This document shows positions 1,428 through 25,610 of a DNA stretch of 26,251 bases, in pieces. The notes beneath the pieces are model-generated. The model was not told the origin of the DNA and searched no databases. It saw only the letters and a program-made list of their open reading frames with translations. The stretch covers positions 1-26,251 of the IMG/VR virus record IMGVR_UViG_3300025828_000162. The stretch is one strand, 5' to 3'. Positions within the stretch are counted from its first letter, which is position 1; every line of letters begins with the position of its first letter. The position numbers and the translations under genes were made by a program. The DNA is from a virus. Lineage: Duplodnaviria; Caudoviricetes.

Positions 1428-3563
1428 TTAATTTTCTTTTACCCAAGCAGTACCATTCCATTTATAGATATATTCAGCCACTAAGACATCAGTATTGCTA
1501 TCTGTTATTGTATAAGTACTTCCTTTGTTAGTATAAATTGTTGCACCAGTATCATCAATTCCTAAAGACAAACCTGTGATATCACTATCATTGCTTACCC
1601 TATATGCTAAATATATTTTAGTAGAATAATAAATCATTTCAGATCCACTTATTACTGTGTCAGGTGTATCAACTGGTATATTATATATTTCAGAAACAGT
1701 TAAAGTTTCTGTATCAATAACATATTGTCCATTTGAATTAGCAATTATGTCAAAGAAACCATCTACTAATGCTGCAGAACCATTTGACATACCATCAAAA
1801 GCAAATTCTGGAGTTTTTATAGTAGCTACTTTATATCCTGGATATATTGTACCTAAAGTATTTTTAGTAGTTTGAAACCAAGAATAATCTGTTGCAACAT
1901 TTGAAAATACATCTTTATTAGCTAATGTTACAGATCTTAAACCATAATAATCTGGTGTTTTTGAACCTAATGTCGTAATTGAAGCATTACCAACACCTGT
2001 TGAAAAATCACCTAATGTAGTTCCTGTACCAGCTGAATCAGTTACAAGTAATTTAAATATATTATTTACATATCCATTATTAACTGCAGTAAATCTAATT
2101 TGATTTGAAACAGGTTGATCTTTTTCAATAGTCCAATCAGTTATAGAATTATTAATATTTTCCACTACATCTGCAATTGTATTTACAGCACCAGGTAAAC
2201 TTGGAACAAAACCAACAAAACTTTTATTATAATTAGCTGAAGCGCTTCCAGGTTTAAATACTTGAATATTAGTTTTACCTGCATCATCAATATTGGTTTG
2301 TGTTGTACCTAAACTACCTTGTGTAACAGTTTTAGTAATATTTAAATCAGAAAAAGATACATCTAATCCTATATCATCTTGAATTGTTGTAGTCCAATTA
2401 ACTATATCTGAATTACCTGAATCAATTGAAGCAGTTATATATCCATTTAAAGCAGAATTTAATGCATCTCTAAACTCAAGTGCAGCATTAGTAGAATTTA
2501 AATTATTACTAAATGATGTAGCACTTCCGCCAGTAAATGTAACTTTACTAAATAAAGGTTGTCCATTTACAGTAGTTGTATATAAATCAGGGGCAACTAT
2601 AGTATATGTTTCATTTAATACTCCAGATCTTGTAATTGAAGCATTACCAAAAACAATATTTCCTGCATCATCTCCAGTAACAGATCCATTATTTACAGTA
2701 GCAGTCCATAATTGACTAGGATTTGAATCAAATGGAATTGCACCAGTAAATGTAATCTTTTTAGTTTCAGTATCATATGTAGCAGAATAATTATTAGGAG
2801 ATTCAGTATTATTGTTTATTAAATCAACTAAATCATTTCCAATATCATCTGATTGATCATCACTTTCTAAATTAGCTGCAACATTTAATGTTAATGTACC
2901 TGTTCCATCTGGTTCAGTTAAAGTTATACTTGTAGCAGCAGTAGTTCCAGCTCCATCAGTTTCATATTCATAATTGTGAATAATATTTGTACCATCACCA
3001 GCAACATCATTAATTGTAAAAGATGTAATTTCATTATCAGCTGTACCTGTATTAACTATTATTCCATAACCTGAAAAATCTACAAGACCACTATCTGGGT
3101 TTATATCAGATACATAACTAGGTAATGAAACAGATAGTCCACTTATACTTAAACCTAATATTGCTGTTCTAATTTCGTTTAATGCATCAATAGCACCAAT
3201 ACCGTTTGATAATGCAATATTATTTAAATATCCTAAAGTTCCTAAACTAACTGAATATTGTGTATTTGATCCTGAACTCCATCTTGTTTCTAAAGTAGGT
3301 TCAGTAGAATTATAAATATATAAATCATCATCTAAAATAAATTCTTTACCAAACCCAACAATATCAGCTGAATCTGAATAAGTGAATTGTGATGAATAAC
3401 CACCATCATCAGTAAATATTTGTGTATTTGTAGTTGTTACTACAGCAACATTAGTACTATCTAAAATATGAATATTTTTTAAACTATTTCTTATATTAAT
3501 ACCAGTAATAATATCTGAGCCTGACCATGTTCCTGCGTTTGCATAAACAGAACTGATTGCCAT
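1428..3563 (-). CDS. Tail-tip adhesin part C (711 aa): propeller-like N-terminus, four repeated beta/alpha domains, C-terminal YKWNGTAW motif
   Basis: AAGGA SD; T/S/G/N/D-rich virion composition; repeated helices DALNEIRTAI, DIGNDLVDLIN, AALEFRDALN, IADVVENINN. Confidence 0.75.
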   Translation of the reverse strand: MAISSVYANAGTWSGSDIITGINIRNSLKNIHILDSTNVAVVTTTNTQIFTDDGGYSSQFTYSDSADIVGFGKEFILDDDLYIYNSTEPTLETRWSSGSNTQYSVSLGTLGYLNNIALSNGIGAIDALNEIRTAILGLSISGLSVSLPSYVSDINPDSGLVDFSGYGIIVNTGTADNEITSFTINDVAGDGTNIIHNYEYETDGAGTTAATSITLTEPDGTGTLTLNVAANLESDDQSDDIGNDLVDLINNNTESPNNYSATYDTETKKITFTGAIPFDSNPSQLWTATVNNGSVTGDDAGNIVFGNASITRSGVLNETYTIVAPDLYTTTVNGQPLFSKVTFTGGSATSFSNNLNSTNAALEFRDALNSALNGYITASIDSGNSDIVNWTTTIQDDIGLDVSFSDLNITKTVTQGSLGTTQTNIDDAGKTNIQVFKPGSASANYNKSFVGFVPSLPGAVNTIADVVENINNSITDWTIEKDQPVSNQIRFTAVNNGYVNNIFKLLVTDSAGTGTTLGDFSTGVGNASITTLGSKTPDYYGLRSVTLANKDVFSNVATDYSWFQTTKNTLGTIYPGYKVATIKTPEFAFDGMSNGSAALVDGFFDIIANSNGQYVIDTETLTVSEIYNIPVDTPDTVISGSEMIYYSTKIYLAYRVSNDSDITGLSLGIDDTGATIYTNKGSTYTITDSNTDVLVAEYIYKWNGTAWVKEN

Positions 3564-3578
3564 TTTAAATTTCCTTTA

Positions 3579-4106
3579 TTAGTTAAATTGTCCACCACCA
3601 GTTGCAACAAAGTCAGTATAATCTATTGAACTTGTTTGTACAACTTGTGAACCTGTATTAGTATAAGTAATTACATTGCTATTAGAACTTGCAGTAAAAT
3701 TAGTTAAATTATTTATCGCTAAAGCTATAGCTGTAGCAGTACCTTCAACAGTTGAAGACATAGTATCTGTTAATGTACCATAGTCTGTTAAAGATAATAT
3801 CCATGCTCTAATCGGATTAGTAGTATTATCATAATTACTATCTAATGTAATTGTATATGTATTTGTTGTACCAGGTCTTGTTAAATTAATTTCTCTAACT
3901 TTTGTACTTGTAGTAACTTTTATAGTATCATTATCTTGTATTTTAATTGATAATATACCACTAATAGTTTCAACATCTTGAAATACTTTTTCAAATCTAT
4001 GATAATATTTTATTTTAGTTCCATTATACCAAACAATAATATTTTCATTTGTATCTACAATGTTATTGCTAATATCTAAATTTGATATTGTATCTAATAT
4101 TGCCAT
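3579..4106 (-). CDS. Tail-tip adhesin part B (175 aa), ends GGGQFN
   Basis: AGGA SD; N-half of short beta strands, C-half one copy of the repeated domain (GTATAIALAINNLTNFTASSNSNVITYT). Confidence 0.7.
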   Translation of the reverse strand: MAILDTISNLDISNNIVDTNENIIVWYNGTKIKYYHRFEKVFQDVETISGILSIKIQDNDTIKVTTSTKVREINLTRPGTTNTYTITLDSNYDNTTNPIRAWILSLTDYGTLTDTMSSTVEGTATAIALAINNLTNFTASSNSNVITYTNTGSQVVQTSSIDYTDFVATGGGQFN

Positions 4107-4126
4107 TATTTTATTCCTATATAATT

Positions 4127-6697
4127 TTAATTAAATTGTGCACCACCTAAAGCGCCTAACAATGATGGTATTAAATAAATATTCCATATTTCTCCTTCAG
4201 TAACTGATGAATTATAAAGTAAAACATCATCTCCCATATTAGAAACATTAAAGTTTTCAACACCACCTGCATTTGTTCTTGCATAAAATGACCAAGTATT
4301 ATTAACCAATTTAAATGAAAACAATTCAGTATTAGACATTACATATGCAGTTGAAGTACCTATAGATACAGATCTTCCAAAACCGCTTGATACACCATCA
4401 GGAACTAATGAACTTAATTCTAAAGAACCATTTACTTTAACACTATTAGTTGAAGAATCTGCAGTTAAAAAACCAGCTGTATCCCAATCTTTAGCATTTG
4501 CAATTATTTTTCTAGATGTATCATTTTGTATATCATCAGCTAAATTAATATGTAATAATTCTTTTTGTGTTACATTACCTCTTGTTCCTGTAAAACTTAT
4601 TTCTTGTTGTTCTGTTACAGCAGTTCCTGAATTAAAATCAGATGGAAATGTTACAGATCCTGAACCATCAGTTCCACCTGTTCTAGTAATTGTATTAATT
4701 GAAGTACCAGCATAACCTATTTGTTGAACAGCAGGAGTATCATTAAATGTATCTCTCATATTAGATCCAGTATTACTATCTGCATATCTAATTTGAGTAA
4801 ATCTATTTACAACTCCATAAGGATTTTTTGTATCATTAGGATCAACAATAATTCCAGAAATACCTGAAGTAATACCTCCAGCACCTGGTCTAAATACACC
4901 AAAATCATAAGCATTAGAAAAAGCCCCTCTAGCAAATTGATTAATTGGCCTTACCCAAAATACTAATGTATCTGTAAAATCTATATCAAATACTTTGTGT
5001 CTAATTGTTGCACCTTCAGTAAACGGACCTGTTGATGTTCTAAATGAAATATTAAATTCTCTATCAGCAATAGGATCAGCAATACTATCTCCAACATATA
5101 TTTCAAATGTTTCTGTTAATCCTGTTGGTACAGTCCATTGTAATTCTACAAATGGTGTAGAAGAATCTGTATCACTACTAATTGATGTTAAATCAGTAAT
5201 TGTTCCAAAATTTCTAGGATTAGCTAAGTTTGTATTTGGAACTGTTTGAAATTCTGTTAATGCTTGTTCTGCATATGCAGCAGCATTATATTCTTGAGCA
5301 GTAATATAATATCCTGATACACCATCAGTATTCATTTCAGTTTCAGTAATAGAATTAATTTTAAACAATTTATTAGTAAAACCATAAGTGTTATTTGTAA
5401 CTGATATTATATCTGTAACTTGTAATGCTAAAGCCCTTGTATCTGTTTTAAATGATACAATTAAATTATCTCTTGATTTTTTAATAATAACATTAGCGAC
5501 TCTTTCAGCCATAATATTATTATTTATATATTTTAATCTTGTGTCTTGAACTAATTCAGGTTCATTGTATGCTTTTTGATCACTAGCTAAAGTTAAAAAT
5601 ACTTGATCATCTTGAAATTTTTGATCAATAGAATTAAAAGAAATATTCATTTTATTTATGGTACTATTAAAACCATCATTAACTATAGTAACATCACCAT
5701 ACATATTATCAGGTGTAAATGACATTACAGATGTTCCTGTAGTATCAGAAATAATTTGAAATTTACCTAAATGATAACTAAATATACCTTGAGAACAAAC
5801 TACTAAATCAGAAATATTTAAATCCCTTGTATCATTAGTATTTAAAGCACCATTTGTTGTATATCTTTTAGCACTTACTGTTGCTCCATTTTTATCTGTA
5901 TGTGAAATTAAAGTATCACAAAATGTTTTATGAGCAGCAAATGAATCTAAATCAATATCGTTGTCTGATAATACATCACCACAACCATAAAAACTATTAG
6001 TTAAATAATCTAATAAACATTCAGCTGGGTTATTTGAATAAAAAGTATCAGTTGATAAAGTACTTCCAGTAAAAGTCCTAACTAATTTACCTTGAACTTC
6101 TGCACCTAATTTAGTTGTTAAACCTGTTACAGATTCATCTCTATTATATTTTAATTCACAATACAAATATGCAACATTTGGCATTGTTCTATTTTCAGCA
6201 TTGGTGTTCCATTTAGAGGAAAATGTTTCCATAGGAGAACATCTACCACCAGCTTTAAATTTTTTAACTATTAAATTTCCATTTAAAAAATTATCTGTAT
6301 TACCATCTGGATCTGTTGCATTTGTTACATTACCATCACTATCTAATGTTAATCTAAAATTATCCCAATATACATCATCAATACTTTCAATTGGCCCCTC
6401 ACATAATGAAATAATAAATGCCATTGTTTGGTTATCAGATGTTATATCTGCAAATGTAATTGAACCAAATACTTTACCTCGTCCATAAATAACAGGAAGT
6501 TTATTATTAGGGTCTGATGCAATTCTTTGTCTAACTCCTGGATCAGGGGCTGTTTCACCAACACCTGCATTTGGAATATCTGGAGCAAATAATTTATTTG
6601 CGATAAATGAAACTGCTACTGACAATGCAAATCTAGCTATCATTCCTTTAACACCTGCTGATGTAAGAACTGTTATAACTGGTGCAGCTGCTGCCAT
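4127..6697 (-). CDS. Tail tip / host-specificity protein (lambda gpJ-like hub, FN3-like domain, variable C-terminus), ends GGAQFN
   Basis: LPVIYG, LCEGPIESI, SNNPAECLLDYLT and ALALQVTDIISVT...FKINSI motifs; FN3-like VELQWTVP...FWVRPINQF; FG-GAP-like GFGRSVSIG near the end. Confidence 0.88.
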   Translation of the reverse strand: MAAAAPVITVLTSAGVKGMIARFALSVAVSFIANKLFAPDIPNAGVGETAPDPGVRQRIASDPNNKLPVIYGRGKVFGSITFADITSDNQTMAFIISLCEGPIESIDDVYWDNFRLTLDSDGNVTNATDPDGNTDNFLNGNLIVKKFKAGGRCSPMETFSSKWNTNAENRTMPNVAYLYCELKYNRDESVTGLTTKLGAEVQGKLVRTFTGSTLSTDTFYSNNPAECLLDYLTNSFYGCGDVLSDNDIDLDSFAAHKTFCDTLISHTDKNGATVSAKRYTTNGALNTNDTRDLNISDLVVCSQGIFSYHLGKFQIISDTTGTSVMSFTPDNMYGDVTIVNDGFNSTINKMNISFNSIDQKFQDDQVFLTLASDQKAYNEPELVQDTRLKYINNNIMAERVANVIIKKSRDNLIVSFKTDTRALALQVTDIISVTNNTYGFTNKLFKINSITETEMNTDGVSGYYITAQEYNAAAYAEQALTEFQTVPNTNLANPRNFGTITDLTSISSDTDSSTPFVELQWTVPTGLTETFEIYVGDSIADPIADREFNISFRTSTGPFTEGATIRHKVFDIDFTDTLVFWVRPINQFARGAFSNAYDFGVFRPGAGGITSGISGIIVDPNDTKNPYGVVNRFTQIRYADSNTGSNMRDTFNDTPAVQQIGYAGTSINTITRTGGTDGSGSVTFPSDFNSGTAVTEQQEISFTGTRGNVTQKELLHINLADDIQNDTSRKIIANAKDWDTAGFLTADSSTNSVKVNGSLELSSLVPDGVSSGFGRSVSIGTSTAYVMSNTELFSFKLVNNTWSFYARTNAGGVENFNVSNMGDDVLLYNSSVTEGEIWNIYLIPSLLGALGGAQFN

Positions 6698-6699
6698 AA

Positions 6700-7137
6700 T
6701 TAAATTTCCTTTTTATACATTGATTGAAATTCTTTATAGTTCAATTTATTAAAATTAATATTTGTTTTAGGTATAGAATAAAAAATTATATCTTTAACTT
6801 CTTTATGATTTTTTATTTCTTTTTCCAATTTTTTATTCATTCTATAAAATATAGATGAACCCCTTTTATTAGGATGAACCCAAGTTAATAAAATATGTAA
6901 TTGTGTTATATGTGGATTTAATAAATTAGGTATTTTCATTCCTAATAATACACCATCTATAACTCCATTTTTATCTTCTGATATTATTGCAGTTTTATCT
7001 TTTGCTATTGCTTCCATTAAACCTTTATAATATTCTGTATTATCTTCTTTAAATTGACCAAAGTCAAATTCTTTTCTGTGTTGTTCAAGTAATTTTACAC
7101 CTTGATCAACATCTTTATATTCTCCGATTCTTATCAT
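6700..7137 (-). CDS. GNAT-family acetyltransferase in the tail module
   Basis: 145 aa; acetyl-CoA motif A-like WVHPNKRGSSIFYRM preceded by the typical strands (IISEDKNGVIDGVLLG). Confidence 0.75.
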   Translation of the reverse strand: MIRIGEYKDVDQGVKLLEQHRKEFDFGQFKEDNTEYYKGLMEAIAKDKTAIISEDKNGVIDGVLLGMKIPNLLNPHITQLHILLTWVHPNKRGSSIFYRMNKKLEKEIKNHKEVKDIIFYSIPKTNINFNKLNYKEFQSMYKKEI

Positions 7138-7152
7138 TATATTTATTCTCTA

Positions 7153-7740
7153 TTATTCTTCTGCTCCAAACCTTGGATTAAAATTAACCATTGAAGCCAC
7201 AAATTCCATTGAAGCATCATTGCTTGTATATTGTTTAAATGAACTATCAGATGTAAACCTACCTGATTTAGTGTCTAATAAAGCACCTACTATATTTTTA
7301 CATTCAATACTTATATTAACATCACCTTCATTAGTGTTTTCTTCATCAACTGAATGTGAATTAATTATACCTTGCCATTTTTGATATACTTGGCCTTCAA
7401 TTGCTCCATTTTCATCATTCCAAAAAGCTTGATATATAGTAACTATACCACCAATAGCATTTACATTTTCTAAAGCAGCTATTATTGTGTTTGGTAAACC
7501 ATTTAATTGTATAGTTACTGAATTAGTTTTTACATCTTTAGTTTCTTCAACAGCAGATAAACCAATTATGTTTGATCCAGGTAAATATGTATCACCATTA
7601 TAAGTAATATTTGTATATCCTGTATTTAAAAATAAACTATCATTATTATCTGCAGTTACTTGAAATTTAATTAATTGAATTGGATAAGTTTTAGTATTTG
7701 ATACTTCAGCTAATGTTGTTGAATCTATTGACTTTACCAT
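7153..7740 (-). CDS. Tail tip/baseplate hub protein (gpL/DUF2163-like)
   Basis: ITYNGDTYLP, GLSAVEET, VTIYQAF, RFTSDSS...DASMEFV pattern; position between Dit-like gene and tip protein. Confidence 0.7.
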   Translation of the reverse strand: MVKSIDSTTLAEVSNTKTYPIQLIKFQVTADNNDSLFLNTGYTNITYNGDTYLPGSNIIGLSAVEETKDVKTNSVTIQLNGLPNTIIAALENVNAIGGIVTIYQAFWNDENGAIEGQVYQKWQGIINSHSVDEENTNEGDVNISIECKNIVGALLDTKSGRFTSDSSFKQYTSNDASMEFVASMVNFNPRFGAEE

Positions 7741-8354
7741 TATAATATCTCCTGAAAATTAAAACTATCATAAGCATAATAATTATATCCTGGGCCAGGA
7801 ACAACTGTTACATTTGGTCTTCCATTTAATAACATTTTAAATTGTACACCATTACCATAAGTAAATGTATTACCACTTACAATTGGGTTAATTGCACCAG
7901 TCATTAATTTAAAAGTTAATAAATTACTTGAAGCATTTGCATCAGCTTTAATTTGATAAACTTTTGTGCTTGAACTAAATTGTATAAAATCACCAGCTTT
8001 AACATTGCTTGAATTATCTACATTAGCCAATTGAACGTCTTCTCCACTTGTATTTGCATTAACAATATCAATTGACAAACCAGATTGTGCAATTATAGAT
8101 CCATTAGCAAAAGTTAAATTAATTGTTGATGGTAAATCAGTTGTTTTAAAATCTATTCCATCTGTTATTCCTAATAATTCTGCTTCAACCTCATCATATT
8201 TCGATTTAGTTAATAATGGTAAACTTACTTCCATAGAATAAAATGTTGGACTGCCTCTTTCAATTCTAGCATAACCTGAATTAGATATTGATCTTCTAAC
8301 TCTGGCAGCTCTATTTAATGAGACACTATTTGTATATTCAAATATTTTTGACAT
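7740..8354 (-). CDS. Distal tail protein (Dit-like)
   Basis: First gene after tape measure (TAATG overlap); VKAGDFIQF...KVYQI insert and terminal FNFQEIL. Confidence 0.7.
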   Translation of the reverse strand: MSKIFEYTNSVSLNRAARVRRSISNSGYARIERGSPTFYSMEVSLPLLTKSKYDEVEAELLGITDGIDFKTTDLPSTINLTFANGSIIAQSGLSIDIVNANTSGEDVQLANVDNSSNVKAGDFIQFSSSTKVYQIKADANASSNLLTFKLMTGAINPIVSGNTFTYGNGVQFKMLLNGRPNVTVVPGPGYNYYAYDSFNFQEIL

Positions 8355-10483
8355 TATTTTCTCCTATTTCTTAAACCAGCAGTATTTCTAGTAAAATTTC
8401 TATTAGCTCCACCTACTTCAGCAGGGCTACTTGTTATAACAGCTTTAATTTGATCAATTGCTCTTTGATCTACATTTCCGGATATATTAAATGTATTATT
8501 AACTACTGAACCCATAGATCCTTGAACCTTATCTCTTGGTATTACAACTTCTCCTGGTGTTAATAATGCAGGTACTCTATCTGTATATGGTGCACCACCT
8601 GGTACAACTCCGCCTTTATTAAAACCTAAGAAAGAAAATAAACTACCACCATTACCACCACTTACAGCAGCAGTTGCAGTTGCTAATGCTAATTGTTGAG
8701 CTTTTTCACTTGTAATTTGTTTTTCAACTATAAGCTTTTTAGTTCCTAAATTTTCAAATAATTTTTCTATACCAACTTCAATAGTCTTTTTTATAATAGT
8801 TTCAGCTATAGTTTGTAATACATTTTTAAATAAATTTTTAGTCGTTTCTAATAATGAATTACCTTGTCTTAAGCCTTCTAAAAAAGTTGTACTAATTGTA
8901 TCTGAAATTAATTTAGCTTCAATACCAGAATCTTGTAAAAGATCCCTATATGTTCTTTGAGCAGCGTTAGCTTTAGCTTGATCAATAATCATTCTTCTAT
9001 TTGTGAACATAATTCGTTCATTTATAGAAGCTAATTCATCTTGTCTTTTTAAAAAATCAGGATCAGTTGCAGCACCAAAATTAGGTCTTGATCTAGGATC
9101 CCTTACAGCTCTTGGTGTTGTTCTTGTTCCTGAAAATAATTGTTTTTGTTTTTTATTTAATTTTGTATAAGCATTAATAACTTCATTAGCTTCAATTTTT
9201 ATTTGATTAAGTTCTTCTCTTAATAATTTTGCAGCTTCTTCTGCTTCTTTTGAAGCTTTTGGAAACACTTTTAATTTAGAAACAAAATTAAGGACTGCTA
9301 ATTGAGCTTCTTTCATTTTATTTATGAAATAATCTCTAATTGTATTTACAACTTTCATTATAGCATCATTAAATGCAATAAATGCTACAACTGCTACTTG
9401 TATTGCAGTTATAATAATACCAACTATATTTGCTCTTAAAGCTATATTTAAAGCAGCTAAACTAACTGTTGCACCTTTTATATTTGCTGCTAATAAAATA
9501 AATTGAGATGCAACTCCAGCAACAAATGTAGATATTTTTAATCCAATAAATATTTTAAATGCAGTAACTAAAGCATCAATATTTGTGGATACAAACCTAA
9601 TTGCATTTTCAATACTTTTAAAAGCTCCTGCTAAATTTTCACCAACAGTTTTAGCTAATGATTTTAATTCAGCATCATTTCTTTTAAAATTACCTACTAA
9701 ATCAATTAATTGTTGTTTAACACCTTCAAATAAAGGTTGAGCAGCGGCTTGTCTAAATCTAAAATAAGCATCTTCTACAAATGAAACCTGTGCTTCTAAT
9801 GTTTGTTCAAAGTCTTTTGTTGCTTTAGAAAATTGACCACCACTAGAAAATACTTCAAAAAATCTTTTTCTAGTTTGTTCAATTGATACTTTAGCACCGG
9901 CTTCAAAGCCTAACATTGCTCTAACACCTCTTTCTCTAAAGACGTCAGCAGCGGCTATACCACCAGCAAATGCTCTTTGAATTTGTTCAGCAGTTTGTCT
10001 AAAATCTAAACCTGTAGCTGCAGCAACATTACCTGTTATTTCTAATACTTTAGCTAATTCATCAGCATCTTTAGCAATAACAGCTAGATTACCAGATCCT
10101 GCTGCAATAGCTTCTAGTGAAAATGGAACTCTACTAGCAAATTGATTTAATACATCAAATGCTTTTGCACCCTCTGAAGCTGAATTAAATAATAGTTTAA
10201 ATCTTACTTGTAATGATTCAGTAAGTTGTCCTGCTTGAAATGTATCTCTTATAAATTTACCAATACCAAAAGTAACAGCAGCTAATGATGCAGCAACACC
10301 AACTTTTAAAGTTGTACCAAGTGCTGCAAAAGTTGCTCTTGATTTAGCAGCTGCAGTTTCTAATTGTTTTAATCTTCTTGAAGCTATAGTAGCATTAGTA
10401 CCTAATTTATTTAAACCAGATTGTAATGAACTTACTTGGCTCTGCCCCTTAACATTAGTAATTATGTCTAATTTTACAGCCAT
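8354..10483 (-). CDS. Tail tape measure protein (709 aa)
   Basis: Ala-rich helical protein; FASRVPFSLE tape-measure motif; hydrophobic central segments; C-terminal FNKGGVVPG...DRVPALLTPGEVVI. Confidence 0.93.
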   Translation of the reverse strand: MAVKLDIITNVKGQSQVSSLQSGLNKLGTNATIASRRLKQLETAAAKSRATFAALGTTLKVGVAASLAAVTFGIGKFIRDTFQAGQLTESLQVRFKLLFNSASEGAKAFDVLNQFASRVPFSLEAIAAGSGNLAVIAKDADELAKVLEITGNVAAATGLDFRQTAEQIQRAFAGGIAAADVFRERGVRAMLGFEAGAKVSIEQTRKRFFEVFSSGGQFSKATKDFEQTLEAQVSFVEDAYFRFRQAAAQPLFEGVKQQLIDLVGNFKRNDAELKSLAKTVGENLAGAFKSIENAIRFVSTNIDALVTAFKIFIGLKISTFVAGVASQFILLAANIKGATVSLAALNIALRANIVGIIITAIQVAVVAFIAFNDAIMKVVNTIRDYFINKMKEAQLAVLNFVSKLKVFPKASKEAEEAAKLLREELNQIKIEANEVINAYTKLNKKQKQLFSGTRTTPRAVRDPRSRPNFGAATDPDFLKRQDELASINERIMFTNRRMIIDQAKANAAQRTYRDLLQDSGIEAKLISDTISTTFLEGLRQGNSLLETTKNLFKNVLQTIAETIIKKTIEVGIEKLFENLGTKKLIVEKQITSEKAQQLALATATAAVSGGNGGSLFSFLGFNKGGVVPGGAPYTDRVPALLTPGEVVIPRDKVQGSMGSVVNNTFNISGNVDQRAIDQIKAVITSSPAEVGGANRNFTRNTAGLRNRRK

Positions 10484-13250: not shown

Positions 13251-13801
13251 TAGGCACCTCCACTAACTTTAACTCCCCTATTTGAGCTTTTATTAGCTGG
13301 ATCTTCATATTTAGCAATTAATCTTTGAATTGAATCAGGTAATTGTTTAAAATTACTTAATCCAGATCCTAAATCAAAAGTTAAAGAAATAGAACCAACA
13401 GATAAATCTTTCAATCTAGGTGAACCAGATGATTGATCCTCTATTGTGCTCATATTTTTGATCAAGTGTAAAGCAAGCTCATAGGTCGCTTTTTTGATAT
13501 CTTCAGGAATAGTTCCCATAAACTCAGAAGTATCATCTCTATCATCTTCTAAAGTTTCATAACCACCAGATTTATTATTCCAGTAAGTAATGTCTCTAGG
13601 CCATGATAAAGGATATGAGGCAGTAGGCTCAGCCGTACCACCCCAATCCAAGTCATTGAGAATTCCTGTGGCTGTTACTAAAGCTCGTTCAACAGTTTCA
13701 TCTGTAGCACTATCCCAAGCAGTTTGGTTTAGCCTATCATAAAAGTATTGTTCAGCTTCTATAATAGTTACAAATGAATTGATTCCTTTTTGTAAAGCCA
13801 T
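13250..13801 (-). CDS. Head-tail adaptor (DnaT-like phage family)
   Basis: NSFVTIIEAEQYF, ALVTAT, LSWPR and IPEDIKKATYELA motifs; follows the capsid gene. Confidence 0.82.
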   Translation of the reverse strand: MALQKGINSFVTIIEAEQYFYDRLNQTAWDSATDETVERALVTATGILNDLDWGGTAEPTASYPLSWPRDITYWNNKSGGYETLEDDRDDTSEFMGTIPEDIKKATYELALHLIKNMSTIEDQSSGSPRLKDLSVGSISLTFDLGSGLSNFKQLPDSIQRLIAKYEDPANKSSNRGVKVSGGA

Positions 13802-13831
13802 TATTTTTCTCCGTATCTAATAGTTATAATA

Positions 13832-14896
13832 TTAACCGTGATAAATTGGGAATAAACCAATTTGGTTAACGTTTGTAGCATGAACTGTCCAGTTTGTACC
13901 TAGAGCAAGGTCAGTATTTGCAGGATATGCAGTTGCAGATCCAGCCCATGAGAATCCTTTCGGATGCATGATATTACCCCATCTAGATAAAACAGTCACA
14001 AGACCACCACCATTACCAGCTAGTTCATCTCTTTCAATTGCAGTTGGATTAACCTGTGCAATATCACTGTAATGTACAGACCCAGCTTTTGCTAAGTAAG
14101 AAACTTTTAAACCTGCAGGCATGTTTGCAGTTAATGATTGGTTATTAATAACAAGTCTAATTTTTCCACCAAGAATAGTAGAGAAATTGAAGTTACCGTC
14201 TACAACTGGAGCAACATCAAGAACGTTTTCTTTTCTCATAATGTTGTAAGTTGCAGTGTCTACTACTAAGTAATAGAAAGGCTCTTCAAATTCACCCTTA
14301 ACTTCAGTGATAGCATCTAATAAAGTATCAAAGAAAGTACTTCTTGATTGGCTAGCACCAGTAGAATTAACAAATAGTGGATTTGGATCATCACTAGCAT
14401 CTGAACCAGTGTAAAAACCAAAAGTACCAACTTTTGCAGCAGCATCAGAAGTACCAATTGTAGTTGCGCCCCAAATTTTGTCAGCAACACCATTTAGGAT
14501 AGATCTTAATTGTAGATCTTCTCTTCTTGCTCTAACTGAAGCAAATTGAGAACCTAAGTATGATAAACCATCAACTTTTGAGATTAATTTTTGAATTGAT
14601 AATTCTTGTGCAGCAATATGATCAATATTTTTGATGTATACTGCTGATTTGTTTGACACTGACATTTCATTAATATCTTTATCAGCAGCAGTTTCATTTT
14701 GCTTATGATAAGTAGTAGGGTCAGAAAAATCTAACCATCTTAAAGTACCAGTGTAATTTTCACCTGAGTCATTGATTCTAGCGTCAGAACCAACTAATGC
14801 AGTTGATGTTAATAACGCAGCATCAGCTCTTTCAGCTTGTTCGTAAGCAGAAATAGCCTTAGCAATGTTATTAAAGTTTGAACTTATTACAGCCAT
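13832..14896 (-). CDS. Major capsid protein
   Basis: 354 aa after scaffold; AAGGA SD; ERDELAGNGGG...SRWGNIMHPKGFSW...LALGTNW motif of siphovirus coat proteins. Confidence 0.9.
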   Translation of the reverse strand: MAVISSNFNNIAKAISAYEQAERADAALLTSTALVGSDARINDSGENYTGTLRWLDFSDPTTYHKQNETAADKDINEMSVSNKSAVYIKNIDHIAAQELSIQKLISKVDGLSYLGSQFASVRARREDLQLRSILNGVADKIWGATTIGTSDAAAKVGTFGFYTGSDASDDPNPLFVNSTGASQSRSTFFDTLLDAITEVKGEFEEPFYYLVVDTATYNIMRKENVLDVAPVVDGNFNFSTILGGKIRLVINNQSLTANMPAGLKVSYLAKAGSVHYSDIAQVNPTAIERDELAGNGGGLVTVLSRWGNIMHPKGFSWAGSATAYPANTDLALGTNWTVHATNVNQIGLFPIYHG

Positions 14897-14957
14897 TATA
14901 TTTTTTCCTTTTATTATTTAATGCACATTTGTGCGGTTATTATTATAAAAGATCAGT

Positions 14958-15611
14958 CTATTCAGACCAGTCTCCGTCAACTTTAATTTGCCCTTTTGCA
15001 ACAGCATTAAGCAATTCATCGGTTGACATATCTTTTATAGATGTGACAGGATTGGTTCCTGTGCTGGGTTTAGCTGGATTAATTCCAGTACCCATATTTG
15101 CTTTAACAGAAAATAAAAATGCATTATTTTCATCTTTAGCATAATTAGACACTGTCTCACTTATACTTAGACCACTTTCATGCACCCAATTTCCTGTAGC
15201 GTCTTTCTTTAAACTGTTTACAATATCTGAATAAGCCATATTAGCTGCTTTTTCAGATTTAAAGTTTAAAGCATTAAGCTGAGTACGCACGGCATTATCT
15301 CTACTTAATTCTGTGTTCTTTTGTTCGTATTGTTGAAGTCTTTGGTTAACCTCATTTAGTTTCATTTGCATAGCTTCAGCATGTTTACCTTGTTGTTCAA
15401 GGCTAGAAATTTCAGCTTGTCTTTTCTCTTCTTTAATTTTTTCTATTTGACTAATAGCTTCATCTCGCTCTTTATATGCATTGTCTAAATTTACTTTTAT
15501 ATTTTTTATAGCTTTAGAAACTTCTTCATCAACCATTTGTTTTATATCTGGTTGTTTAGTTTCTTCAGTTTTTGTTTCTTCAACTTGTGTATTTTCAATG
15601 TTTTCTGACAT
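14958..15611 (-). CDS. Capsid scaffolding protein (probable start MSENIE)
   Basis: E/K/Q-rich coiled coil, late FLF motif and G/P-rich tail; AAGGA SD precedes ATG 15611. Confidence 0.82.
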   Translation of the reverse strand: MSENIENTQVEETKTEETKQPDIKQMVDEEVSKAIKNIKVNLDNAYKERDEAISQIEKIKEEKRQAEISSLEQQGKHAEAMQMKLNEVNQRLQQYEQKNTELSRDNAVRTQLNALNFKSEKAANMAYSDIVNSLKKDATGNWVHESGLSISETVSNYAKDENNAFLFSVKANMGTGINPAKPSTGTNPVTSIKDMSTDELLNAVAKGQIKVDGDWSE

Positions 15612-15662
15612 TATTTTTCCTTTGGACACGGCCTTAGTTATATTTTAATTTAAAACAAAAGA

Positions 15663-16685
15663 TTAATTTGATAATTCTTCTAATTGTTTCAACGAAATTA
15701 ATTTACCATCTTTATTAGAAAATTGAGAAAATTTAACTTTTCCAGAATTAAACAAGGTAACTCTTTTTTGATTTCCTAATACAGCCAGCTTAACTTCATT
15801 TGGTTGGTCTTTTAACCATTCTTCATATGTAGTTTTAGCCGGTACTTGACCATTGATAGAGGCACGACGACTATCAGATAATCCAGCAATTTTTCGTTTT
15901 TGTAATCTATTATTTTCTGTATTTAATAATTGATTAGCACTTTTAATAACAGGTATAGTTGTTGATCTACAATTAAAATGTTGTGGTGGTTGTGGTGCAT
16001 TTTTATTATCTAATGAATAAACTTTACCATCTAACCTAGCACAAATTAAACTAGTTCTGCTATCTAAGGTAGCCACATATTGATAACCTTGAACAACATC
16101 ATCATTTAATTTATATGTTGTATTTGACACATAATTAGATGTTTCAGTTATTGCAGTTCTTGTTAATGTTCTTAATTGTACGGTAGAAGCTAACAATCCA
16201 GATCTACCTAAATCACGAGCTATATTAATCATAGCTTTATTTTCAGTCATTCCCTGTTTGACTATACCTTTTATTCTTCTTTGTTGTAAAATACTTATAG
16301 ATGCTAATTGTTGACTAAAAGTACCATTTGATTTGATAATTAAATCATTAACCTTTATAGTATCTTTTACACCTTTAGCTTTATAAATATTTGTTAAGGC
16401 TCTAGCAAATATACTTTTATAAAATCTAGCACTAACACCAGCTAGTTTATTTAATTCACTAATTCCTTCCTTATATATTTTTTTATAAGTTAAACGAATT
16501 TCAGTATTTAATTTTCTAGTTAAAGCATTTATATTTGCTGTACCAGAAAATGCTACAATTCGTTGTAATCTTATTTTGTGTGATGCCAAAATTTTATCAA
16601 TTTCAGTATCCAATCTCTTTTCGTAAAGAGTCAATAATGCACGGTGTTTCAGCATTCTTGAATATACATCATCATTTATAGACAT
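15663..16685 (-). CDS. Head morphogenesis protein (SPP1 gp7 / Mu gpF family)
   Basis: YQYVATLDSRTSLICARLDG...PPQHFNCRSTTIP and TYEEWLKDQ motifs. Confidence 0.92.
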   Translation of the reverse strand: MSINDDVYSRMLKHRALLTLYEKRLDTEIDKILASHKIRLQRIVAFSGTANINALTRKLNTEIRLTYKKIYKEGISELNKLAGVSARFYKSIFARALTNIYKAKGVKDTIKVNDLIIKSNGTFSQQLASISILQQRRIKGIVKQGMTENKAMINIARDLGRSGLLASTVQLRTLTRTAITETSNYVSNTTYKLNDDVVQGYQYVATLDSRTSLICARLDGKVYSLDNKNAPQPPQHFNCRSTTIPVIKSANQLLNTENNRLQKRKIAGLSDSRRASINGQVPAKTTYEEWLKDQPNEVKLAVLGNQKRVTLFNSGKVKFSQFSNKDGKLISLKQLEELSN

Positions 16686-17785: not shown

Positions 17786-18739
17786 TTATCCCCATAAATT
17801 TCCAGTCATAGAGCCCTTATTGTATTCAGTAGCTCTATTTTCAAAGAAATTTGTGTGTTCAACTCCATTTAGAACCCAATCTAGCCAACTTAAAGGATTG
17901 TCTTTAACTTTATAATTTGGTTTTAAAGATAATTGTAATAATCTTCTATCAGCAATATATCTTATATATTTTTTTACTTCTTCAGGTTTTAATCCACGAA
18001 TACCACCCATTTCAAAAGCTAAATCTATAAATTTATCTTCTAAATCCACCATATCCCGGGCAGTTTGATATAATTCAGCTTTAAATTTTTCAGTCCATAC
18101 TTGTGGGTTTTCTTTTATTAACTGATGAAATAATTTAATCATACTTTCGACATGATGAGTTTCATCTCTAATTGACCAAGTAACTATTTGACACATACCT
18201 TTCATTCTTCCAAATCTTTGAAAATTTAGAAGCATAACAAATGATGCAAATAATTGTAAACCTTCTCCAAATGCAGAAAAACAAGCAATATCTTTTATTA
18301 AACCTTCAACACCTTTGCCTTTTGGTTTAAATAAATATTCATGTTTATCTGCCATTTCTTTATATTCTTGAAATGCTTGAAAATTAGTTAATTGAGTTTC
18401 ACCAATAGTATCATTTAATAATGAATAACTATGAGCATGATTAGCTTCAGATGAAACAAAAGAGCCTAACATCATTCTAACTTCAGGTGCTTTAAATTGT
18501 GGAATATATCTGTCTAAATAAGCTTGAGCTATATCTACATCACCTTGAGTAAAAAATTTTAATATTTGACCTATTAAATTCTTTTCCTCTTGTGTTAATC
18601 TTTCGTTCCAATCTCTTACATCTTCATGTAAAGGAACCTCACTAGGAAGCCAATGCATCTTTTGCATAGTATCATATGCTTCAAACGCCCATTCATAATC
18701 GAAGGGCTTATAATAATTTCTAGTTTTAAATAAGCTCAT
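17786..18739 (-). CDS. nrdB: Ribonucleotide reductase class I beta subunit
   Basis: Metal ligands in FTQGD, EANH with radical Tyr (EANHAHSY), EGLQLF, DETHH; C-terminal FFENRATEY. Confidence 0.96.
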   Translation of the reverse strand: MSLFKTRNYYKPFDYEWAFEAYDTMQKMHWLPSEVPLHEDVRDWNERLTQEEKNLIGQILKFFTQGDVDIAQAYLDRYIPQFKAPEVRMMLGSFVSSEANHAHSYSLLNDTIGETQLTNFQAFQEYKEMADKHEYLFKPKGKGVEGLIKDIACFSAFGEGLQLFASFVMLLNFQRFGRMKGMCQIVTWSIRDETHHVESMIKLFHQLIKENPQVWTEKFKAELYQTARDMVDLEDKFIDLAFEMGGIRGLKPEEVKKYIRYIADRRLLQLSLKPNYKVKDNPLSWLDWVLNGVEHTNFFENRATEYNKGSMTGNLWG

Positions 18740-18868
18740 TTATTTCCTTTTTCTTTTTCTGATAACAACAAGTTTACCATTTTCTTCTTTTACTTCCATC
18801 CCAGCATCTTCAGTTTGTTTTTTTAATTGACGATACTTTTGAGTAATAGTTAATTTTTTTTTAATCAT
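18740..18868 (-). CDS. 42-aa basic microprotein MIKKKLTITQKYRQLKKQTEDAGMEVKEENGKLVVIRKRKRK
   Basis: Hand-translated; AGGA SD; stop abuts the nrdB ATG. Confidence 0.78.
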   Translation of the reverse strand: MIKKKLTITQKYRQLKKQTEDAGMEVKEENGKLVVIRKRKRK

Positions 18869-18876
18869 ATTTATTC

Positions 18877-18990
18877 CTATATACAATCACATATTGTGTT
18901 AATTATTGCCATAATAAATACATAGCCAATATATCCAAAAAGAATTATTGCTAATAATTTATCAGTCCAACTAAAAGTTTTTTTATCCAT
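18877..18990 (-). CDS. 37-aa single-pass membrane microprotein MDKKTFSWTDKLLAIILFGYIGYVFIMAIINTICDCI
   Basis: Hand-translated; TAATG overlap with the nrdA stop; about 19-residue hydrophobic stretch. Confidence 0.72.
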   Translation of the reverse strand: MDKKTFSWTDKLLAIILFGYIGYVFIMAIINTICDCI

Positions 18991-20744
18991 TATCCCTCAC
19001 AAGCTATACAATCTGATTCAGGTATTATTGTTCTTTCAACTTTTAAACTTACTAACTCAGCACGTTTAATTGCTTCAGATCTACAATAATATAATGTTTT
19101 TAATTTCTTCTTCCATGCTAACATGTGAATATCGTGTAATTCTTTTATATTTACATCAGCAGGAACAAACACATTTAATGATTGACCTTGACAAATATGT
19201 TCTTGTCTATCAGCCGCATGTTCAATGATCCATTGTTGATTAATTTCAATTGATGTTTTAAATACATCTTTTTCATAATCTGATAAATCTTTTAAATGTA
19301 AAACTGAACCACGATTAGCTAAAATAGAAGTCCAAGTTTTTTCATTATTTATACCTTTTTGCTCTAATAATTTTTCTAAATATTTATTTTTAACAAGAAA
19401 AGAACCTGACATTGTTTTTTGAACATATGCATTAGCTCTAAATGGCTCAATACTTGGAGAAGTTGTTCCACAAATAATTGAACTTGAAGCATTAGGAGCA
19501 ATGGCAAGTAAATGAGCATTTCTCATTCCAGTACCTTCCATATCCGGAGCTTCACCTCTTTTTATAGCTAATCTTTTTGATTCTTTTACTGCTTCATCTT
19601 TAATGTGTTTAAACATTAATTTATTTTTAGCTTTTGCCATAACAGATTCAAATGCAATATTATTTTTTTGTAAATAAGCATGAAAACCCATAGCACCAAG
19701 ACCAATAGATCTTTCTTGTGTTGCACTATATTTAGCTCTAAATACACTATCAGGAGCATTATCTATAAAGCTTTGTAATACATTATCTAAAAATCTAACA
19801 AGATCAGAAATAAATAATTTATCATCTTTCCATTCATCATATTTTTCTAAATTAACACTTGATAAACAACAAACAGCAGTTCGATCTTCATCGGTTGGTA
19901 ATGTAATTTCAGTACATAAATTTGAATGTTTAACTGACAATCCTAATTTCTTTTGTTGTTCAGGCAATGCATCATTAATATGATCAATGTAGCAAATATA
20001 TGGCTCACCAGTGGCTACTCTGTTTTCAAGTATTTTTTGCCACAAGTCTCTAGCTGAGACCTTTTTAACTATTTCTTTTGTATGTGGATCAATTAAATTC
20101 CAAGTATCATCATAAGTTGGTTCTTGAATACATTTTTCAATTAATTCCATAAAATCATTAGTAATGTTTATTCCATGATGTAAGTTTAAACATTTTCTAT
20201 GTATATCTCCACCTGATGGTTTTCTTATATCTAAAAATTCTAATATTTCTGGATGTGATATATCCATATATGCGGCATAACTACCTCTTCTAGTTTTACC
20301 TTGACTAAATGCCATAATTTCTGAATCTACAACTTTTAAAAAAGGAACAGATCCTGATGATTGAGATCCTCCAGATGTTTTAGTTCCATCAGATCTAATA
20401 TGACCCCAATATCCGCCAATTCCTCCACCAATAGATGTTAACCAAGCATTTTCAGTATAATGTCCAGTTAATCCCTCTCTACTATCTCCAACATAATTTA
20501 AAAAACAAGATATTGGCATACCTCGCTCTGTACCACCATTACTTAATACAGGAGTTGAATACATAAACCAAAGTTTTGATGCATACCCATAAATTCTTTC
20601 AGCCATTTCATCATTATCAGAAAAAGCCTTTGCTGCTCTTAAAAATGCCTCTTGTGGACTATTTTCTTCTGGTAATAAATACCTGTCTTTTAATGTTGTT
20701 TTACCAAAATCTGTGAGTAAATTATCTCTATCTTCTACTATCAT
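18990..20744 (-). CDS. nrdA: Ribonucleotide reductase class I alpha subunit (short, no N-terminal ATP-cone apparent)
   Basis: STPVLSN, PISCF, SNLCTEI, VCCLSS, APNASSS, TLYYCRS and C-terminal CIAC motifs. Confidence 0.96.
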   Translation of the reverse strand: MIVEDRDNLLTDFGKTTLKDRYLLPEENSPQEAFLRAAKAFSDNDEMAERIYGYASKLWFMYSTPVLSNGGTERGMPISCFLNYVGDSREGLTGHYTENAWLTSIGGGIGGYWGHIRSDGTKTSGGSQSSGSVPFLKVVDSEIMAFSQGKTRRGSYAAYMDISHPEILEFLDIRKPSGGDIHRKCLNLHHGINITNDFMELIEKCIQEPTYDDTWNLIDPHTKEIVKKVSARDLWQKILENRVATGEPYICYIDHINDALPEQQKKLGLSVKHSNLCTEITLPTDEDRTAVCCLSSVNLEKYDEWKDDKLFISDLVRFLDNVLQSFIDNAPDSVFRAKYSATQERSIGLGAMGFHAYLQKNNIAFESVMAKAKNKLMFKHIKDEAVKESKRLAIKRGEAPDMEGTGMRNAHLLAIAPNASSSIICGTTSPSIEPFRANAYVQKTMSGSFLVKNKYLEKLLEQKGINNEKTWTSILANRGSVLHLKDLSDYEKDVFKTSIEINQQWIIEHAADRQEHICQGQSLNVFVPADVNIKELHDIHMLAWKKKLKTLYYCRSEAIKRAELVSLKVERTIIPESDCIACEG

Positions 20745-24817: not shown

Positions 24818-25273
24818 TCAGCTAGCCTCGTCTAAAACTATTTGTTTTAATCTTTCGGCTCTTGGGCCAACTTGTGTTGCCCATCGGCTATCCATCATTT
24901 CAATAGCGGCTTCAATCCATTGTTCATCATTTATTGCATCAATAAACTTTTTAAATTTAGATAGTCTTGGTGCACCTAAATTAAAACACATATTAACAAG
25001 AACCACCTGGATATTATCAGGCTTATTAATTAAGTCTGGAAATACCTTTTGTGTTTCTCTAATAAATTTTTGAACATCAGTTTTAAATACTTCATTTACT
25101 CTTTCTTCAGATACTTTTGTACCAACAGGCCAACCATATTCTGGATCCTTATCAGTAATTAAATGACCTATACCAAAAGTGGCATAACCCAAATGATCTT
25201 CATAAATTTCGTATTTAACACCTTCATCAATTTTTAATTGGTCTTTTAATTTTTCTATAAGATTGTTATTCAT
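24818..25273 (-). CDS. T4-lysozyme-like endolysin (GH24; probable start MNNNLIEK)
   Basis: Catalytic E-x8-D-x5-T (DEGVKYEIYEDHLGYATFGIGHL), VNMCFNLG and MMDSRWATQVGPRA. Confidence 0.92.
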   Translation of the reverse strand: MNNNLIEKLKDQLKIDEGVKYEIYEDHLGYATFGIGHLITDKDPEYGWPVGTKVSEERVNEVFKTDVQKFIRETQKVFPDLINKPDNIQVVLVNMCFNLGAPRLSKFKKFIDAINDEQWIEAAIEMMDSRWATQVGPRAERLKQIVLDEAS

Positions 25274-25610
25274 TTTCTTTCTTATTGTATTTATTATCTT
25301 CAAAAGTTAATTTAAATCTAGGTAAGTCCTTCATGTGCTCTTTTCTAACTCTTACGTTTAACATGCTATTCACACACCAAGAGGAATCCAATCGGGATAA
25401 TTGTAAAAGAAGCTCAAAAAGTTTAGCCGTTGCTTTACTTTTAGAAGTAAAAACAATGTCTTTATGACTTACCAGCTTATCTTTGATCGTATTTGATCCA
25501 AAATAAGAAGCTAGTGCTGTTCCGTATTTACCGGTAAAACCAATATAATATGATCCGTCGGTATAGTATGTGATGTATACCTTATAAACTTTCTCAGTCA
25601 GTTTCGTCAT
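25266..25610 (-). CDS. GIY-YIG family endonuclease
   Basis: KVYITY...YYIG, YFGS, conserved E (LFELLLQ) and late N; 114 aa, catalytic domain only. Confidence 0.7.
   Translation of the reverse strand: MTKLTEKVYKVYITYYTDGSYYIGFTGKYGTALASYFGSNTIKDKLVSHKDIVFTSKSKATAKLFELLLQLSRLDSSWCVNSMLNVRVRKEHMKDLPRFKLTFEDNKYNKKENE

Follow-up and report, generated by a model that had tools for sequence, protein, structure and literature searches.

How does a phage build its central tail fiber from three genes, and what would cutting the fiber gain it? The question is raised by genes A, B, and C of a 26,251-nucleotide stretch of viral DNA (IMG/VR record IMGVR_UViG_3300025828_000162), which constitutes the whole record (56% complete) and is referred to here as the window. 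It covers the structural half of a siphophage. The genes all lie on the minus strand, in the order terminase, portal, head, major tail, tape measure, distal tail, tail protein, acetyltransferase, and gene A. Gene A (4127-6697; 856 amino acids [aa]) is followed by B (3579-4106; 175 aa) and C (1428-3563; 711 aa). An earlier, sequence-only reading had placed the two halves of a motif known from streptococcal phage antireceptors in A and C and had proposed one out-and-back stalk, tipped by a β-propeller, whose domains are completed between chains. We judge it fairly likely that A, B, and C are pieces of one tail fiber J that join noncovalently into such a stalk, with the two new chain ends acting as plugs for a lectin-like protein, F. 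In relatives, these parts form one chain, the split is derived, and both new ends bear a conserved tag; the nesting and the propeller are predicted.

Identity of gene A and layout of the locus

Gene A is placed as expected of a J gene, after the genes for the tape measure (8354-10483), the distal tail protein (Dit; 7740-8354), and a further tail-assembly protein (7153-7740). Residues 1 to 600 of A (4898-6697) form a central tail fiber J/baseplate-hub core, matching phrog_31 (E = 1.1e-37) and phrog_5616 (E = 1.5e-35) as a homolog of gpJ-type hubs; the Pfam family Phage-tail_3 scored 19.8 bits (cutoff, 23). This core probably includes what we take to be an FN3-like domain. Among 186 phage records, the top match of A was the tail tip J of Pelagibacter phage Kolga (gp15; MT375529), whose core is 50% identical over 69% of A and whose surrounding gene order is the same, including gp16, the homolog of gene D, downstream. 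In Kolga, by contrast, a single gene (gp15) encodes a J whose C-terminal part is unrelated, and both the A/B/C stalk and the tag are absent. Lambda gpJ matches A in the core only. The phage is probably a Kolga-like siphophage that infects SAR11, as its relatives suggest; Kolga (EXVC016S) is described as the first SAR11 siphovirus (PMC8163748).

In Kolga, J is directly followed by gp16, and therefore B and C occupy the place of the end of J. Gene D (919-1368) is 69% identical to gp16 and is kept between J and the side fiber; gene E (1-903), a collagen side fiber gene, is cut by the window edge. Because the record ends with the window, genes farther downstream, including F, were taken from a 99.9% identical locus (L088). 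The three-gene A/B/C layout is kept across the fetched loci. B, C, and ten subregions gave no family matches in Pfam and PHROGs, and tblastn of C and of its second repeat domain (R2) against phage records returned nothing useful.

Single-chain relatives and origin of the split

A search for longer homologs of C led to one protein, P0046 (1,611 aa), that is colinear with A1-839 (65% identity), B4 to ∼75 (41%), and C14-710 (51%). Residues 838-929 of P0046 are the counterpart of B1-75 (41% identical), and the protein lacks the last 17 residues of A and the C-terminal half of B. A profile search gave 20 matches, three of which were further single open reading frame (ORF) forms (P0148, P0150, and P0154). 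The fused homologs whose search the sequence-only reading had suggested thus exist in four natural versions. All four contain the J core, the first half-motif, the lead strands, a center, four stalk bodies, and the second half-motif. Their centers range from ∼260 to ∼1,050 residues between flanks that stay colinear, as expected if the center is the far end of a hairpin-like stalk.

Two loci (L013 and L016) carry a natural fusion of the N-terminal part of B to C (L013:12568-14910; 780 aa) that lacks the C-terminal half of B and its tag. Residues 76-168 of B are likewise absent from P0046 and from P0042. The view of B as part of the old chain holds for its first ∼75 residues and fails for the remainder.

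In a tree built from 18 J cores over 593 columns and rooted with Kolga (IQ-TREE supports), the 13 split forms make up one clade (99.8/99), with P0046 as its sister (97.2/99) and the other fusions outside. By this topology, the split is derived and arose once. That A, B, and C represent one central tail fiber J cut in three is, in our view, close to certain.

A 3-β module split between A and C

All motifs quoted in the sequence-only reading are in frame at the positions it gave. The first half-motif, RFTQIRYADSNTGSNM, is A632-647 (4757-4804), and the second half, two genes on, is C537-563 (1875-1955), which comprises FSNVATDYSWF (1875-1907) and PDYYGLRS (1932-1955). Two streptococcal antireceptors were used to check this motif, which lies at residues 512-560 of DT1 Orf18. 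Residues 513-561 of this protein are named a 3-β module in Table 1 of PMC9437275 and are likened there to the BppA junction (PDB entry 5e7t).

Profiles of the half-motifs were built from three distinct streptococcal copies and compared with 12 shuffles. The A half ranked first of 10,499 window positions (32.3; best shuffle, 25.3). The C half also ranked first, of 9,923 positions, at 24.0, but 1 of the 12 shuffles scored higher (25.8), so that this half is borderline when taken alone. Each half was the best-scoring site in three of the four fusions as well (reverse HMM E values of 0.024 to 0.11 for the C half). Residues Y638, G644, and R648 of A and Y540, G541, R543, W562, and F563 of C are invariant in 37/37 aligned rows, four divergent fusions included. 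The two halves are predicted to pair in one sheet, A634-639 with C539-543, at an expected error of 0.4 to 0.5 Å in the complex model described below. No second copy of either half rises above the shuffles in the window, which argues against half-motifs that belong to separate intact repeats.

Phage 2972 gp20 has three contiguous 3-β copies and a fourth that is opened between its halves by an inserted domain of ∼160 residues, at the same point as the module of the window. The streptococcal Tal module thus shares both half-motifs and the point of opening with A and C. The Tal insert is one domain in the same chain, whereas the window would hold four nested domains and a propeller between halves on different polypeptides. 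A split 3-β module is not described in the available text of PMC9437275.

A predicted nested stalk

Four domains of C share a strand-strand-helix-strand-strand pattern predicted by AlphaFold2 on the fusion: R1 (innermost; C94-204; 2952-3284), R2 (C205-314; 2622-2951), R3 (C315-417; 2313-2621), and R4 (outermost; C418-534; 1962-2312). Profile comparison was significant for R2-R4 alone (E = 1.2e-6); R1-R3 reached an E value of 0.002 at a probability of 13%, and 4/6 pairs gave no match. Among the four domains, homology is demonstrable at the profile level for R2 and R4 only.

We predicted a complex of C90-711 with A600-742 (one copy each; three runs; alignments of our own making). The complex score was 0.76, versus 0.00 for the best control; 116/157 solved pairs and 2/215 mismatched pairs reach this mark, counts that are only rough for author-made alignments. 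The runs shared at least 85% of their contacts. A600-742 had a pLDDT of at least 71 with C and dropped to 29 beside an unrelated protein, contrary to what chains folding independently would give; C reached 81 to 85 with A versus 64 to 65 with unrelated partners. Halves of a split gene can pass such a test when they resemble solved structures; for A and C, however, no PDB sequence matches the paired regions.

The strand pairs listed for the model run in reverse order along the two chains. After A634-639/C539-543, the outer lead strands PAVQQIGY (4712-4735) and SINTITRT, together A655-673 (4679-4735), are predicted to complete R4 (A656-660 with C489-493; A668-669 with C431 and C451). Next, GSVTFP (A680-685; 4643-4660) is predicted to complete R3 (A682-684 with C361, C387-388, and C409). 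The predicted interface comprises A627-710 and A712-723 and takes in R2 (267-274) and R1 (163-173). Within it lie AVTEQQEISFTG (A693-704; 4586-4621), the likely lead strand of R2, and VTQKELLHINL (A709-719; 4541-4573), the innermost strand and, by nesting order, the likely lead of R1. The C-terminal domain of C (C566-711; 1428-1868) would fold back to the base, with C606-619 and A612-618 both in the predicted interface.

The out-and-back stalk with interchain complementation proposed from the sequence is therefore supported by the model, with folding dependence as a prediction. The count of four repeat domains in C was correct; three of them had been thought to lack a lead strand, which does not hold, since all four touch A strands in the model. 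The orphan lead strands quoted for A also stand, as an incomplete list from which the R3 lead GSVTFP was missing. Four domains and the 3-β module are predicted to be completed across chains, and on this model we consider a nested out-and-back stalk highly probable.

P0161 (731 aa) is an unrelated collagen fiber. It contains a strand resembling A698-708 (E = 0.0013) and another stretch that looks like a strand; an insert follows, and then R1-like (E = 0.027) and R2-like (E = 5e-21) bodies. This co-occurrence of lead-like strands and bodies supports the partners assigned to R1 and R2. Foldseek on the P0161 model found no match at an E value of 0.001, only weak FliD, flagellin, and sheath rows (E = 0.07 to 0.9); the stalk fold is therefore left unnamed. 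The R1/R2 module also occurs in other fiber proteins (P0158, P0160, and P0162 besides P0161) and is thus a mobile unit. The extra domain of B (B76-168; 3603-3881) is possibly of the stalk type and a spacer for the tag. In Atlas, it and the C stalk (1839-2966) return identical unnamed clusters, a weak link, and both have a weak crAss auxiliary capsid protein row (PF25650; 0.89 to 0.90); the profile match of the B C-terminal half to R1-R4 was not significant.

A predicted propeller at the tip

Residues 591-1611 of P0046 were modeled by AlphaFold2, using an alignment picked from ∼110 trial subsets for rows aligning to the right regions. Confidence was concentrated in an all-β region (pLDDT, ∼60 to 90), and the top Foldseek rows were propeller proteins. 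Model residues 136-397 align with whole WD40-type propellers (VIA alignment; Z = 18.4; root mean square deviation, 2.7; 246 residues aligned). All 50 structural rows fall over this range, which suggests a closed propeller of the seven-bladed type; membership in the WD40 family is not claimed.

The range maps to A728-839, B4-75, and C14-87; it thus spans all three genes, and both gene breaks cut the propeller. In the window, part 1 is A728-839 (4181-4516), which contains GFGRSVSIG (4358-4384), and part 3 is C1-87 (3303-3563), which contains GFGKEFIL (3333-3356); both map to the propeller of the fused model. The middle part is B1-75 (3882-4106), assigned by its identity to P0046 and by its joining to C in L013 and L016. 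The fused homolog model thus bears out a propeller made from the end of A, the N-terminal half of B, and the start of C. Closure by the three chains is a prediction drawn from a single-chain relative.

C-terminal tags and the LamG protein F

The sequence-only reading overlooked that A and B both end in G-[GS]-[AG]-QFN. The A tag is LGGAQFN plus the stop codon (4127-4150) and is missing from the fusions; the B tag is TGGGQFN plus the stop codon (3579-3602), with QFN in 30/30 distinct B 3′ ends. GG[AG]QFN is the C terminus of about 100 marine phage fibers. As the last three residues, QFN is found in 61 distinct A-type ORFs and in 43 of B type; the lone exception is a premature stop in L015. It also closes 89/93 homologous proteins. 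Positions −8, −6, and −5 and QFN are kept and neighboring positions vary; among the 13 ends counted as "other," a few belong to A or B and escaped the pattern. The Q and N codons vary in A; in B, only the N codon does.

In L088, gene E (871 aa) ends in GGGQFN and is followed by F, a LamG and SPRY gene, and then by a DUF7483 gene. F matches Pfam PF13385 (Laminin G/ConA-like; 47.7 versus a cutoff of 27.6 bits; E = 2.3e-12), with a weak SPRY match and no PDB sequence match. A scan with the tag pattern, covering 18/64 parts of IMG/VR, gave 121 loci with 119 distinct tagged ends. Seventeen belonged to A or B; the other 102 mostly precede a LamG-type start (n = 95), with 1 before something else and 6 without a downstream ORF in the locus. 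The tag-to-LamG junction is a TAATG overlap in 83 of the 95 cases.

F homologs occurred in 57 phage records, 12 of which were fetched, ten having been picked as apparently unsplit. These ten LamG proteins all have a short leader and SLRF[NDEKR] ahead of the strand that begins F. The distance from this Phe to a conserved Trp is 24 to 26 residues in 10/10 contiguous homologs and in 83/95 tag-plus-F pairs, and thus the tag corresponds to LamG strand 1. Judged by this spacing, the tag supplies the first strand missing from the LamG domain of F. The donor-strand principle, in which an acceptor short of one strand receives it from the terminal peptide of a partner, is recognizable here at the sequence level. 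Against a LamG first-strand profile, the E, B, and A tags scored 7.1, 5.8, and −0.4 (0, 1, and 3 of 193 other C termini, respectively, scored as well). In L013, the side fiber (1,543 aa) is untagged, F is present, and A is tagged, so that the tag is seen on A only within that locus. From these patterns, docking of F by the A and B tags appears somewhat favored. It is the weakest step of the reading and, along with host binding and three arms per tip, is one that we infer.

Several variants of this arrangement were observed. In the unsplit LamG proteins (L233-L240, L243, and L244), which directly follow the fiber gene, the leader before strand 1 has 11 to 27 residues and may be an older docking device. 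HTVC200P (MH598801) carries a second copy of a side fiber 3′ end (L242:11250-11445) that ends in GGGQFN, has no start of its own, and precedes a second LamG gene (gp37). This copy adjoins a DUF7483-like gene on the opposite strand, an arrangement suggestive of an alternative lectin cassette or of an inversion. HTVC104P (L241:3042-10374) has two tag-plus-LamG gene pairs, the second with the variant donor tail NNSGGFN. Finally, the N terminus of P0155 (154 aa) resembles that of a headless LamG protein and its C terminus the last 55 residues of C; the protein is possibly an assembly chimera.

Proposed assembly

Three J chains would form the hub at the tail tip. Beyond the J core, the A strands would run outward bare, and C would return over them, supplying its half of the 3-β module and the four stalk bodies in reverse order. 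A propeller made of A728-839, B1-75, and C1-87 would cap each arm. Both breaks lie within this propeller, and nowhere else could the folded-back chain gain a free C terminus far from the baseplate. In the fused ancestors, the variable center probably binds the host directly. In the split clade, the two propeller breaks may have brought in side fiber gene ends and so created free C termini at the tip, that of B carried on its extra domain. These tails would complete the headless LamG domain of F, each J arm showing up to two copies, and one variable lectin gene could arm both the side fibers and the central tip.

In general terms, the distal split would be a route to docking sites, and the LamG strand 1 plug would be common to SAR11 podophages and siphophages. 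A single hypervariable lectin gene would then serve side fibers and tip, and receptor-binding modules could be swapped across unrelated pelagiphages through a seven-residue connector. We put this general proposal at about even chances.

Points against the proposed assembly and alternative explanations

Several results weigh against the assembly as proposed. The complex score is a model confidence obtained with author-made alignments, a setting in which split-gene halves tend to pass. The pairs listed for the complex end at R3, and the partner strands of R1 and R2 were assigned indirectly. In the AlphaFold2 model of the fused chain, the lead strands stayed unplaced (pLDDT, <50) and the stalk reached ∼30 to 70; the model of P0161 was uninformative. 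The complex prediction covered A and C, and the propeller was modeled in a single-chain relative. The fusions are known as proteins alone, P0046 from one contig; scans with P0046 gave split loci only and locus searches for P0161 and P0154 gave none, so that no DNA context was found for any full fusion. The Q and F codons of B show no synonymous change (30/30 CAA and TTT). The A tag of the window fits the LamG first-strand profile less well than the tags of B or E. The host is inferred from relatives.

The alternative that survives best accepts the nested stalk and denies that the A and B tails dock F. The tails would be recombination relics kept for packing on the propeller or on another partner (e.g., the DUF7483 protein), and the propeller itself would bind the host. 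Some A ends are nearly letter-identical to side fiber ends (L032 and L030), as recombination would leave them; the modest score of the A tag and the four fusions, which do without tags and have highly variable centers, fit this account as well. It explains poorly why A-x-G-[GS]-[AG]-QFN-stop is kept on A and B, with no extension past the N, while neighboring residues vary freely, or why L013 retains F with the only tag of that locus on A. We regard it as unlikely.

In a second alternative, J would be a domain-swapped or braided trimer in which A strands complete C domains of a neighboring arm, giving one thick fiber in place of three arms. J/Tal proteins are described as trimers (PMC9437275), and a 1:1 model is blind to pairing within versus between arms. 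Against braiding, a single copy each of A and C suffices for an interface across A627-723 that was self-consistent in three runs, and P0161 has a two-layer module in a different fiber. This alternative is improbable.

Still less probable is that the ORFs are covalently rejoined by read-through, frameshifting, or ligation at the terminal Asn, making interchain assembly unnecessary. The terminal Asn and the TAA stop are invariant, and the B-C gap is in frame at 20/22 distinct junctions. The A-B gaps, by contrast, range from −1 to 26 bases and use all three frames (13/3/3 of 19), which makes recoding unlikely and rules out a single frameshift or read-through rule for A-B-C. In addition, the B stop in the window is backed by a second in-frame TAA, and B and C are each preceded by purine-rich sites that resemble ribosome-binding sites. 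The spacing from the tag to the conserved Trp of F is that of a contiguous domain and fits a strand rather than a ligation signal.

Finally, A, B, and C might be tail proteins in their own right, each complete in its domains, and the half-motifs a matter of chance or of separate modules. This view draws on the borderline C half-motif and on the failure of AlphaFold2 to pair the lead strands and is already largely refuted by the four colinear fusions, the complex scores and pLDDT shifts relative to controls, and a propeller that requires all three genes.

Relation to known systems and to SAR11 recognition

The proposed noncovalent assembly has partial parallels. In the available text on the RTX adhesin AhLap, a split domain begins with a strand that leads out into a projecting ligand-binding domain and is completed when the chain comes back, with at most two nesting levels (PMC12077191); AhLap is a single chain of Ig-like folds, without the five-layer recursion or the gene split. 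The cyanobacterial RNA polymerase insertion Si3 is described as an elongated stack of repeats, several formed from distant parts of a folded-back chain (PMC10895346), but it has the SBHM fold and is one chain of an intracellular enzyme. In podophage A1002, host-binding subunits are hung on a tail protein by β-sheet augmentation, and a tail protein is split in two (PMC13730344). There, an internal nozzle rope binds fiber dimers, whereas in the window phage a free C-terminal peptide equivalent to LamG strand 1 would complete the fold of a partner.

As a further parallel, chaperone-usher pili use donor-strand complementation, with an Ig-fold pilin that has an N-terminal extension, a chaperone, and an usher. 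The tags share the principle and not the membership: here the acceptor is LamG and the donor is C terminal, with no chaperone, usher, or Ig pilin. Each principle has precedent; what is new is their combination: five predicted nested layers and one propeller divided among three chains, ancestors that were fused, one dated fission, and each break bearing a standard plug. A literature search (pelagiphage receptor binding, LamG, tail fiber propellers, nesting, and cryo-electron microscopy), with subscription journals and supplements outside its scope, found no paper on this locus or on a pelagiphage tag. As a gene fission that can be dated, the locus is a rare case: its ancestors were fused, L013 shows a partial refusion, and a selective reason is plausible. 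The predicted three-chain propeller and five-layer strand zipper, occurring naturally, would be of interest for split-protein design.

On how phages recognize SAR11, a lectin gene in a hypervariable region has been suggested, no more, to play a role (PMC10504331). That gene is a homolog of F: the match in Skadi-1 (15131-15730) falls partly within the hypervariable region as published (13,646-15,713), which stops just short of the tagged fiber end (15786-16184). The tagged-fiber module matches at least 25 Pelagibacter phage records, and the tag itself was read directly in HTVC104P and HTVC200P. With a conserved peptide plug of this kind, a synthetic peptide and a single soluble domain would be enough to test how recognition works.

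Neighboring genes and minor variants

The acetyltransferase gene (6700-7137; phrog_1249, E = 5e-10) lies immediately upstream of J, and Kolga has one too. Two ORFs between the portal and head genes (17786-20744) resemble ribonucleotide reductase subunits, and an ORF upstream of the terminase gene (24818-25303) is presumably lysozyme-like. Relative to A, Kolga gp15 (L001:8906-13075) has two large inserts within the core, and the Kolga distal tail gene gp12 (L001:5976-7829) encodes 617 aa versus 204 aa in the window; this tail module therefore commonly takes up loop insertions. Single contigs show premature stops in A or C (L015:104-2176; gene C of L035/L050 and of L100), which may reflect sequencing errors or pseudogenes.

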